From: Eledone cirrhosa
Lineage: Eukaryota
DNA: 64,000 nucleotides
NCBI GenBank assembly: GCA_964016885.1
Contig: OZ024740.1
Location: forward strand, 112,158,001-112,222,000
Direction: 5' to 3'
The translations under genes and the position numbers were made by a program. The stretch's first letter is position 1. Each line of letters begins with the position of its first letter. This document shows positions 36,061-49,235 of the stretch, piece by piece. The notes under the pieces are model-generated. The model did no database searches. It was not told the DNA's origin and worked only from the letters and a program-made list of their open reading frames with translations.

Positions 36061-36302
36061 ACGACATTACTACAAAAACAACAACACTGCAATACCCCAA
36101 CAATAACAACAACAACAACAACAACACTATTACTACGAATACTAAACTATGGAAGAACAGGATGGCAACAACAGCAACAACATTAACAACAACAACAACA
36201 GCAACAGCTTCAGAAAAAGAAAGAAACAATATTCCGAAGAGAAAAATAAATCGGTACGAGGAAAGTTAGTAAAAGATTAAGAAAAAAGGATAGATAGATA
36301 GG

Positions 36303-36341
<39 letters not shown>

Positions 36342-36342
36342 G

Positions 36343-36388
<46 letters not shown>

Positions 36389-36594
36389 TATTTCTTTATT
36401 TGCCACAAGGGCGCACAAGAAAAGGAGACAATACAAAGACATGCCGGGGATTTTACATACAGTCGTGTAAAAAATATAAAAACAAACAATTACAACAATC
36501 GGAATTACCAATAGGGGGGAGGCGCCACAAATGGGTTGTTTAGTACCCCGTCGATAGAACAACCCTCAACTGCAGGAGCGTGTTGTGCAAGTGC

Positions 36595-39500
36595 TCATTT
36601 CTTCCTTATGCTCTCTTCTTCAACCGATAGGCTTATAAACAGAGAAGGCCCAATCACTCGGGCCATTTTCGCTTCATTCACCCACCTTTCAGTAAATTTA
36701 CTGAGGTGCAGTGCCTCTCTCTCCACTCTGATTCTCCTTCTAAAGTGATACCTAAAGAAGGGAATCAATTGTTGTCCGGAGAGAAAGGCATCTGTCCTCA
36801 GTCCTCTCAATATCGTCCACCATATAACTTCTTTCACCATAGCCACCGTACAGAGGAAAACCGCCTCTCTTTCGTTTTTGAAAGAGGCTGGCGGTTTGAT
36901 GCTTACTATGGACTCGGCAGTCAACTGTATTTGTCACATACGCGACAGCAGCTGTTCTGCATAGTTCCACAGGTCGGTTACGCCCGGGCAGTGTACAATT
37001 GCGTGCAGGACTGTTTCAATGTCCTGCGCGCAACTTGGACACGTCCTCTTGGAAGGATCCCTGCCGGGGCGTCCGTGCCTGTAGATCTTGTCACGAACCG
37101 GTAGAGCTCCTCGGTAGCACTGCCAGGCCAGGGACCTCTGGAAGTTGCCATAGGTCCCGGGCGGAAAGTCCTACCGAACAGACTGGTGAGCTCATCGTCT
37201 TCGACGCCCAGAGTCTCTCCGAGCACGTCGTCGCTCTTGTAACGTACAATCCCTCTATAGAATGTCGAAGTGGAGACTCCACTGATTGCTGCGCCCGCTT
37301 GCCAGAGGACTGTGAGCGCCTGAGCGCATTCAATGTGCCAGGCGCCCATCGTTTTCGGTCTTTTCTTCACCCAGGACTGCAGCTCCGTCAGCGAGACGAG
37401 CTGTGGGAAAGCCTGTCTCACAAACGGTGCCCACACCGGTTGGGGGTCGGTGAGGAATACCTGGAGATGCCGCAGCCTCAGCGCACGTTTGCGCATCATC
37501 AGGCACAGCCCTCCGTTGGAAGGGTGCTGACAGCAGACGGATCTCCTCACCAGCGGAGCCTACTTCTTCCACAGAAACTGGAAGAGCATGCGTTCCATCT
37601 TGGCGAGGTGTTCACGGAGACAAGGCACGACAGTCAAGCGGTAGTAGATGACGGACGCTATGAAAGTGTTCGCCACCTCCGCTCGACCTTTCAAGGACAG
37701 TTTGCACTCTGCCCACTTCTGGGTGAGTGCAAACACCTTGGCCGTGACCTCGTTCCAGTTTTTCTCCACCTGGAGGTCTGGACCGAACCAGACCCCTAGC
37801 AATTTCAACGTTCCGTCCGTCCAGCGTCCAACGACGCTGTCGGACGTCATCGGTTTGTCTCTCCACGTACCGAGTTGTCCGGGTTTAATTTTGCTCCCGT
37901 CAGCGTTTTGTATTCTTTCAGTAAGTTGCCGATCACCCCGATTTCCGAGGTGCTCGACACCATTACTGTCACGTCGTAGGCATAAGCCGATGCCGCTTTG
38001 CGCAGTCCCGGTTCTAGAGGGATGCCCTGCAACAGCTCCAATTTCCGAAGTAGTGGCTCTAGAGTCAATACATACAGAATGGAGGAGAGAGGGCACCTAT
38101 GTCGAATGGAACGCGTGATTGCGAACGGCTCCGATAGGTAGCCGTTCACCTTGACCCTCGAGCAGATGCTGGTGTGCATCGCCTCGATCCAGCCTCTGAA
38201 CACGGACCGAAACCGGCCGCCTTGAGAACCACTTCCAAGTATCGATGGTCGACCCTATCGAATGCCTTAGACTGATCCAAATTGATCAGAGCTCCACCTA
38301 AGCCAAGTTTATTACCCACCCTCTCTATGATGTATCGCATGAGGTGGAGGTTGTCGTGTATGGACCTGGTCGGGATTGCACACGTTTGCGCTTTCCCTAC
38401 CAGGTTCTCGACGACAAGCGCCAACCTCGTCGCTAGCACCTTGGCCAAAATCTTTAACTCTGTGTTGAGCAGAGTTATGGGCCTGAGTTGTTAATTTCGT
38501 CCCCCTTGTTCTCGTCTTTCCTGATCAGCGTTACTACACCCTTGCCTGCAGAACTGGGAATTCTGCCGTTCTGCTGCCAATTGCAGTAGACGGCTTCGAG
38601 GACGCCAGAGAACAAGTCCGGCATGCCTATGTAAAACTCATAGGGTAGACCATCTAGACCGGGTGACTTGCGTTTCCCGCAGCAGCCCAAAGCGTCCCGT
38701 ATCTCAGTGTCCGTGATCGGTCTTTCGCAGAACTCGGCGTCCGTGTTCGAGAGACGCGGCAGGCCGTCGAGGTATGAACTAAAGTCCATTGCCCCGTTCG
38801 GCTCACCGTCGTTCTGCTCAAACAGTCGCGCAAAGTGCTGCTGAAAGGCTGCGCACATTTGCTTGTGGTCAAGTAGCACGCGTCCGTTTTGGTCTTTCAA
38901 AAACCGAATCGTGGACTTGTTGCCAATTTTTGCCTCCGCCACTCGGGCCCAGCTGACAGCTTTCGCTCCTTCGTTTCCTAGAGCACGTGTTTTGCTTCTG
39001 ACCACGCAGCCTTCGTGTTTCGCATCGAAGAACTGGTCCAGTGCCGTTCTCGACGCTAACACTCTAGCCGCGTTGCCACTTCTAAGTGCCTCCTCTACCT
39101 TGGCTACTAGTTCTCTTTCTATTCTGTTTTTCTCTAAGGCTAACTCTCTGCTATACCCTATCTATTCTATTCTAATTGCTTTCTTGAGAGAGTACCACCA
39201 TCTATTGTTGACGATGGCTCCCGTTAACTGTTGCTGGACTAGTCTACTTATCCGTTCACTGTAAGCTTTACGTGCCGGCAACGACACGTTCAGCTTCCAG
39301 TATCCGGGTCCCTGTCTATGTGTTCTATCACGGTTGACTAAGCAGACGACTAATTTGTGATCTGAATAGGCAACCATGTGCATTCGTGGACAGCTTAACA
39401 TCTCCTTGTCCCTTTCTCTAATGAAGAACCTATCTAAATACGATCTAGATGTCCCGCTGCGGTTTGCCCACGTCCACTGTGGTGCAGTCGGGAAATCCAG

Positions 39501-48314: not shown

Positions 48315-48555
48315 AACGTAATCAAACTTCTTACGATATTTTTTCAAAATTTCGATGGAGAAAAAATTTTCAAACGAATATTTCGCCCCTGTGGGGGGCG
48401 AAAATGAGTTGACCCACCACCTGAAAGTCCAGACGGGGGGGGGGGTTAAGTTACACAATAATATAAAATTTAACTGAAAACTCGCGTTTTTTTCTGACAT
48501 AAATTAACGGAAACTTCTCTGCGAAGTTACACACGTCTGGTAGAGAGAGAGATAA

Positions 48556-48634
<79 letters not shown>

Positions 48635-49177
48635 TATTTCTTTATTAGCCACAGGGGCACAAAAGAAGGGGACAAATACAAAGGGGGAAGTTTACATACA
48701 ATAAAAACGTGTAAAATGTTATCACAAATGGAATTTAAAAAGTTAGTCGATTTTCCCCAATAGAGGGAGACAGTTTATATGGGTAACACATACCCCCGAA
48801 AAAAATGTGCAACCCTCATCTCCAGGAGTACGAAGAGCTTGTACTCCTTTCCTCTCCTCATCCTTTTCCTCAACCTACAGGCTGATATAGAGAGAAGGCC
48901 CATTCACTCGGGCCATTCTCGCCACTTTCACCCACCTTTCATAAAACTTGCTGGGGTACAGCACCTCTCTCTCCATCCTGATTCTTCTTCCAAAGTGGTA
49001 TTTGAAAAAAAGAATCAGTTGTTGGCCGGAGAGAAAGGTGTCTGACCTCAGCCCTTTCAACCTTGTCCACCATACAACCTCTTTCGCCATAGCTATCACA
49101 CAAAGGAAAACCGCCTCTCCTTCGTTTTTGAAGGAGGGTGGCGGTTTGATCATGACAATGGACTCGGTGGTCAACTG

Positions 49178-49180
<3 letters not shown>
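48635..49180 (-). mobile_element. 5'-truncated Tx1-like LINE, subfamily B, in (GATA)n
   Basis: Near-identical to 42666-43210; (GATA)n on both sides, with GGAT microhomology at the 5' junction. Confidence 0.95.

Positions 49181-49235
<55 letters not shown>

Follow-up and report, generated by a model that had tools for sequence, protein, structure and literature searches.

We identified five insertions of L1-group, likely Tx1-clade, retrotransposons in a 64-kb stretch of Eledone cirrhosa DNA (the window), all flanked by (GATA)n repeats, and we consider it probable that these elements target (GATA)n by means of target-primed reverse transcription. A BLASTN comparison of the window against itself located five copies, all on the minus strand: two that are full-length but broken (A and B) and three that are 5′-truncated (D, C and E, with lengths of 46, ~545 and 1535 bp, respectively). 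Every 3′ end reads AATAAAGAAA(C/T)A joined straight to (TATC)n, without poly(A), so that the same junctions on the plus strand read GATA|T(A/G)TTTCTTTATT; the plus-strand motif TTTCTTTATT occurs at five sites only in the 64-kb window, and these are the five element junctions. The initial annotation had claimed five insertions in GATA repeats with one orientation and a common 3′ register lacking poly(A), and both claims were confirmed at 5/5 junctions, with the single orientation amounting to no more than three independent arrays, for which the window by itself gives p ~0.125.

Three of the copies are stacked. A plus-strand GATA array of 25 units (36289–36388; sequence and TRF) adjoins the 3′ side of copy A (36389 to ~42649, minus strand, ~6.26 kb), a full-length, broken member of an older subfamily that was delimited by its 79% identity to B over ORF2 and by the alignment of the two 5′ UTRs. 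A spacer of four GATA units (42650–42665, plus strand) leads to copy B (42666 to ~48550, minus strand, ~5.88 kb), a full-length, broken member of a younger subfamily recognized by its similarity to C and E, and a second plus-strand spacer (48551–48634), made up of ~21 GATA units and including a single GATAAATA variant, leads to the truncated copy C (48635 to about 49180, minus strand; BLASTN within the window). On the 5′ side of copy C there are 14 plus-strand GATA units followed by (GA)n (49178–49235), with no element beyond them. The head-to-tail stack of three copies was therefore present as first described, but the spacers are not made of GATA units only, as they also contain (GA)n and the one variant, and both full-length copies have TCTCT at their 5′ ends. 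Copy D (28331–28376, minus strand; 95.7% identical to B over 46 nt) splits a plus-strand GATA array whose outer ends are both decayed (28261–28532; TRF array TAGA and sequence). Copy E (59666–61200, minus strand; 91.8% identical to B) lies between a short plus-strand repeat on its 3′ side, decayed beyond seven perfect bases at the junction (59636–59665), and a plus-strand GATA array on its 5′ side (61201–61287; TRF array ATAG). Searches of the window by tblastx and tblastn found no further diverged copies. GATA/TATC arrays without an element are also present (13091, 32672 and 56215).

The window contains several other repeats. Very long, impure (AT)n tracts extend over 1968–5776 (3.8 kb), 9714–10766 (1.05 kb) and 51959–53056 (1.1 kb), and no element copy lies within these three. 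A C/A-rich tandem repeat with a 148-bp unit occupies 915–1592 (4.6 copies, 96% matches), and BLASTN matched dispersed repeats at 62563–63075 to 27115–27251, 35746–36047, 54225–54331 and 24818–24912.

Copies A and B have the same layout, with a 5′ UTR, an ORF1 carrying a CCHC knuckle and an ORF2 carrying APE and RT domains (Pfam), and neither is intact, owing to frameshifts and stops. The ORF2 of copy A (36622–40043, minus strand; Pfam and tblastn) encodes APE, RT and a C-terminal zinc motif in five frame segments with six stops (Exo_endo_phos, E-value 4.7e-11; RVT_1, E-value 0.0019), and its broken ORF1 region with a CCHC knuckle (40086–42436, minus strand, ends approximate) was found by tblastn with the ORF1 of a related locus, L007 (E-value 6e-7). 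The ORF2 of copy B has the same domains, together with frameshifts and stops (42904–46347, minus strand; Pfam and tblastn; RVT_1, E-value 3.8e-25; Exo_endo_phos, E-value 2.9e-9). Its frameshifted ORF1 (46385–48314, minus strand; E-value 1e-6 to the L007 ORF1) combines an RNA-binding-like region with a CCHC knuckle, which has a weak zf-CCHC match (E-value 0.095) and Atlas features at 0.90–0.91 to CCHC/ZCCHC3-type clusters; zf-CCHC is found in the L007 ORF1 at an E-value of 1.6e-4. Neither ORF1 matched an L1-type ORF1 family in Pfam or the Atlas. The ORF2 plan of N-terminal APE, RT and C-terminal zinc motif is present, and the intact relatives closest to it (P0123, P0124 and L007) have a zf-RVT match.

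The Pfam domains and a profile search support the proposed identity as an L1-group element with APE and RT. A profile of the RT of copy B and 23 relatives (A1) matched human L1 ORF2p with an E-value of 6.6e-119 and R2 proteins with 1.9e-36 or weaker, and no TRAS1 or R1Bm endonuclease entries were among its 21 matches. Tx1-clade ORF1 proteins are of the type with an RNA-binding domain and a CCHC knuckle, not of the vertebrate L1 type. Membership in the Tx1 clade is likely, given the L1-group identity, the ORF1 type and the element's behaviour. The closest named proteins come from Argonauta hians (63% and 67%) and the cuttlefish Acanthosepion pharaonis (48%). A quick RT tree of 54 rows, built from database matches without labelled Tx1 references and with P0125 dropped for short overlap, joined copy B to an Argonauta protein and an unnamed 72% match (SH-aLRT 99), placed this group as sister to 21 rows that include the cuttlefish protein (SH-aLRT 99), and separated the clade that contains the cephalopod sequences (SH-aLRT 100) from matches in turtle, medaka and lancelet.

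Copy A has itself received other sequences. A SINE-like repeat of ~190 bp lies inside its ORF1 (41190–41376, minus strand) with an apparent 8-nt AATATTTG duplication, and a second SINE-like fragment lies on the plus strand at 42026–42108. The ORF1 insert matches about ten other window sites at 72–91%, among them 6300–6637, 11848, 14195–14612, 20377–21262 and 25816, with a tandem pair at 20877–21269. The head of this family is tRNA-like by eye; Rfam gave no match to it, and had 0 matches in the whole window. A 3′-terminal RNA hairpin was also considered for the GATA element and was not established (z of −2.2 in B, −1.1 in A and +0.4 in E); the corresponding value in L007 is −3.0.

The stacked copies arose independently. 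Copies A and B are 79% identical over 3.8 kb and 65% identical in part of ORF1 (BLASTN), and they are consequently members of different subfamilies, so that the A-B-C array is not a tandem duplication. Duplication of one unit was also rejected because copy C is truncated and 97.6% identical to B over the last 540 nt, a region in which E is 95.4% identical to B. The 5′ UTRs of A and B align as far as the short TCTCT start, which indicates that both copies are full-length. Two to four TC units begin both of them, right after the TATC run (42645–42649 and 48542–48550), and these starts either belong natively to the 5′ end or arose by duplication of the start of A.

GATA-phase runs are found on both sides of all five window copies. 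The perfect runs at the 3′ and 5′ junctions are 43 and 70 nt for D, 46 and 17 nt for A, 17 and 79 nt for B, 79 and 58 nt for C, and 7 and 28 nt for E; the description of the 46-bp copy D as having GATA on both sides was therefore accurate. Truncated copies without 5′ GATA, which would speak against targeting, were looked for, and none of the three truncated window copies is of this kind. The 5′ flank of A is shared with the 3′ side of B, and that of B with the 3′ side of C, which leaves the 5′ flanks of three copies (C, D and E) as independent observations. No element 3′ end lies within 400 nt beyond the 5′ arrays of these three copies, and their arrays are consequently not the tails of neighbours.

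These flanks bear on a quite improbable explanation, by which insertion is widespread and the element supplies its own GATA tail, but copies survive or accumulate only in repeat-rich ground, so that 5′ GATA would be fortuitous here or confined to a minority of copies. The window is indeed rich in microsatellites (9,031 of 49,745 non-element bases), the apparent copy number is high, and the junctions collected from public sequencing runs (see below) come without a denominator. However, GATA-class repeats make up only 756 of the 49,745 non-element bases (1.5%, or 8.4% of the microsatellite bases), and the chance of three independent GATA 5′ flanks is ~3.5e-6, or 5.9e-4 given any microsatellite. 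Moreover, (AT)n is seven times commoner than GATA in the window, yet it flanks no copy. Most likely, then, GATA is a target and not only a tail. Copy D counts for this reading, as it interrupts a single array whose two outer ends have decayed.

Beyond the window, part of copy B is present in eight public sequencing runs. Four runs with four organism labels were aligned to 42350–44900, and 25,005, 77,406, 2,532 and 71 contigs were fitted; the family looks very abundant by the two largest of these counts, with run depth not taken as copy number. Such apparent abundance agrees equally with strict specificity and with a looser preference. Among the 12 joints listed (with 304 further ones), ten connect the element to the GATA stretch at 42645–42658, leaving it at 12, 24, 25, 36, 41, 66, 384, 585, 703 and 955 nt from its 3′ end. 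Extra letters number at most three at five of the ten joints and 5–13 at the other five, and all ten come from two runs that carry different organism labels, X1 and X4. Their form is that of truncated copies with GATA at the 5′ break, which supports recurrence and gives no fraction, as the joint table reports only those 5′ flanks that match the given stretch, leaves non-GATA flanks invisible and has its strand inferred from coordinates. Among the loose contig ends listed (with 3,719 further ones), 0 of 24 carry GATA. The claim that truncated copies have GATA on both sides thus holds for 3/3 in the window and extends to contigs of two public runs. The exact 3′-end pattern had 0 matches in the genome contig and viral contig collections; four matches in metagenome contigs were set aside as chance, without an element around them, and a protein-profile scan of viral contigs gave no confirmed match.

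A sister lineage also forms arrays. The profile scan of genome contigs returned 42 loci, 39 of them from one binned genome (G001), and sister families occupy loci L005–L041 and L044–L054 (G001, L046). G001 was binned as bacterial; its small contigs contain LINE DNA of animal type flanked by (AT)n-rich sequence, and these arrays are presumably host animal DNA that was mis-binned. Sister elements have 46–50% RT identity, intact ORFs and the two-ORF plan of the GATA element, and the two lineages have in common a GTGCC..AATAAAG 3′ end without poly(A), which in the sister lineage bears no repeat tail. Their arrays, from several families, are homogeneous and head-to-tail with a period of 6.4–6.85 kb, and contain no microsatellite spacer; one contig (G001:C9, 20491–91106) has 13 3′ ends over 70.6 kb, with two units that are ~3.1-kb truncations. 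A family-specific motif of 11–16 nt follows each sister 3′ end and precedes full-length and truncated units alike. It differs slightly between junctions. At three array ends, the adjoining host DNA also starts with this motif, which is absent from the start of one array and present at the start of another. From these sequences, we read the motif as a sign of repeated insertion at a renewed target, and its place at array junctions and array ends would, by analogy, follow the same logic of keeping the target as the GATA element. No tRNA was found in 17 related loci. A distant relative (L043, 34% identity) has a U1 snRNA gene on either side (3036–3199 and 9961–10137).

The sister arrays show that stacking occurs without a microsatellite, and it therefore appears older than the GATA target. 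Array growth by leaving target on both sides, as originally proposed, is upheld in that the insertions are independent, but it does not need GATA. A related explanation is that the real target is the element's own end, as may be the case in the sister lineage, with GATA merely carried in the junctions. The sister arrays, pure and up to 13 copies long, would agree with it, as would the two flanks of copy B: a 21-nt stretch containing TCTCT recurs on both sides with a single mismatch, which is what duplication of the 5′ end of A would produce. We consider this explanation very improbable; neither D nor E has a neighbouring element in its GATA array, and the same holds for the GATA array on the outer side of C. 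The match at B would fit a younger B inserting just upstream of A, and native TC starts explain it equally. Any target-site duplication is masked by the repeat; it would be at most 7 nt, exact, at E and possibly 21 nt at B.

Under the preferred reading of GATA as the target, the ORF2 endonuclease would nick the GATA strand in one phase, and the freed 3′ end would prime reverse transcription at the fixed 3′ end of the RNA (..AAUAAAGAAAYA, without poly(A)), with the template perhaps carrying a few read-through UAUC bases. Joining of the second strand to the upstream repeat would be loose, either blunt or through 1–3 nt of microhomology, and often premature, leading to truncated copies; the microhomology between the repeat and the 5′ break is 3 nt (GAT) in C, 1 nt in D and none in E. 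A fixed 3′ register in 5/5 copies and loose 5′ joints fit target-primed reverse transcription. The repeat would remain on both sides after each insertion, so that later insertions, including those of another subfamily, could take up the same orientation next to existing copies, and head-to-tail arrays would grow.

The main rival to this mechanism, which we regard as unlikely, is that the element makes its own (TATC)n tail, which pairs with a GATA strand that has been broken or nicked, so that targeting depends on this RNA–DNA pairing instead of on endonuclease specificity. Pairing would need no specific enzyme to account for the constant orientation and register or for the repeat on either side of the element, and the 3′ junction looks alike whether it derives from read-through or from the target. 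However, the repeat that adjoins the 3′ end of copy E has only seven perfect bases, which does not resemble a fresh tail, and the sister lineage, with an equal GTGCC..AATAAAG end and no repeat tail, still has motif-specific junctions. In addition, the purified Tx1L endonuclease is sequence-specific in vitro, with nicks nearly restricted to its own site (available text of PMC1950540), and many Tx1-clade families are described as target-specific, with the target set mainly by the endonuclease (available text of PMC4494074). An endonuclease hairpin loop influences nicking preference (PMC1950540, same portion); it reads NRSGTSRS and NRSGISRS in A and B and is longer in most sister proteins, and its difference may be related to the difference in target, as a correlation only.

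Microsatellite-specific elements of this kind are already known. The portions of PMC4494074 that we draw on describe the teleost Tx1 families Kibi, in (TC)n, and Koshi, in (TTC)n, together with crocodilian families in (TTCC)n or (TTTC)n (Tx1-1_Crp, -5_Crp, -6_Crp, -1_Gav and -2/-3/-5/-8_AMi), and call a family target-specific when the target is found in >20% of flanks. For the GATA element, the target flanks 5/5 window copies, and the run contigs have no denominator. Like those families, it is an L1-group element with APE and RT in a short TC-containing repeat, tetranucleotides included; in contrast to their (TC)n, (TTC)n, (TTCC)n and (TTTC)n targets, its ten junctions are in TATC phase. Its nearest relatives have non-microsatellite junctions, and the GATA target may therefore be a separate gain. 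Excerpts from other sources list Waldo in (ACAY)n, Mino in (AC)n and Dong in (TAA)n beside TC and TTC targets (PMC3812793), SART/TRAS and the anole Tx1-1_ACar in telomeric repeats (PMC10088271), and a (TG)n target with tandem Utopia insertions (PMC4640811). As with Waldo, Mino, Dong, SART/TRAS and Tx1-1_ACar, the target of the GATA element survives insertion and allows stacking, whereas SART/TRAS combine a telomeric target with an R1-type endonuclease and the GATA element combines an ordinary microsatellite with an L1-type profile. SART/TRAS, Waldo and Mino belong to the R1 clade.

A GATA-specific retrotransposon family was not found among the literature matches listed, from a search of papers that did not extend to Repbase Reports or Dfam, and the available portions of PMC8869645 and PMC9004415 add nothing on GATA. 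In our judgement, it is possible, if not the expected case, that the target is already recorded in Repbase Reports or Dfam. The suggestion of a new family would thus hold for its target, but not for its kind, as tetranucleotide-specific Tx1 elements were already known in crocodilians (available text of PMC4494074). The searchable main text and supplement of a study of Octopus vulgaris contain neither 'GATA' nor 'target site'; it annotates 80 L1-Tx1 families over 56.3 Mb, with 13 recently active families and 421 insertions, and the portions available name no target for them (PMC13282606). Those elements are of the same class and probably the same host group, and the GATA family may well be among them.

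The observation is well supported locally, and what is probably new is the target unit, (GATA)n, and the host group. More tentatively, and with rather less than even confidence, we suggest that a coleoid Tx1 lineage has long inserted at short, self-renewed targets to form arrays of tens of kb, and that an octopod branch, whose endonuclease loop had changed, acquired the (GATA)n target separately from Kibi and Koshi, becoming abundant in several species, where it splits and multiplies GATA microsatellites. (GATA)n, a common microsatellite, would join the list of retrotransposon targets, and microsatellite-specific Tx1-like elements would be extended to the cephalopods, which are rich in L1-Tx1 (56 Mb in O. 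vulgaris according to the portion of PMC13282606 cited above). Octopod GATA markers would be affected, as their flanks would often be element ends. The mechanism by which APE elements target microsatellites is described as not well understood (available text of PMC3812793), and the GATA family, with 46–50% identical relatives that use other motifs, makes it testable. If the coleoid target switch is true, these close relatives with different targets would provide a natural series for studying how the specificity of an APE endonuclease changes.
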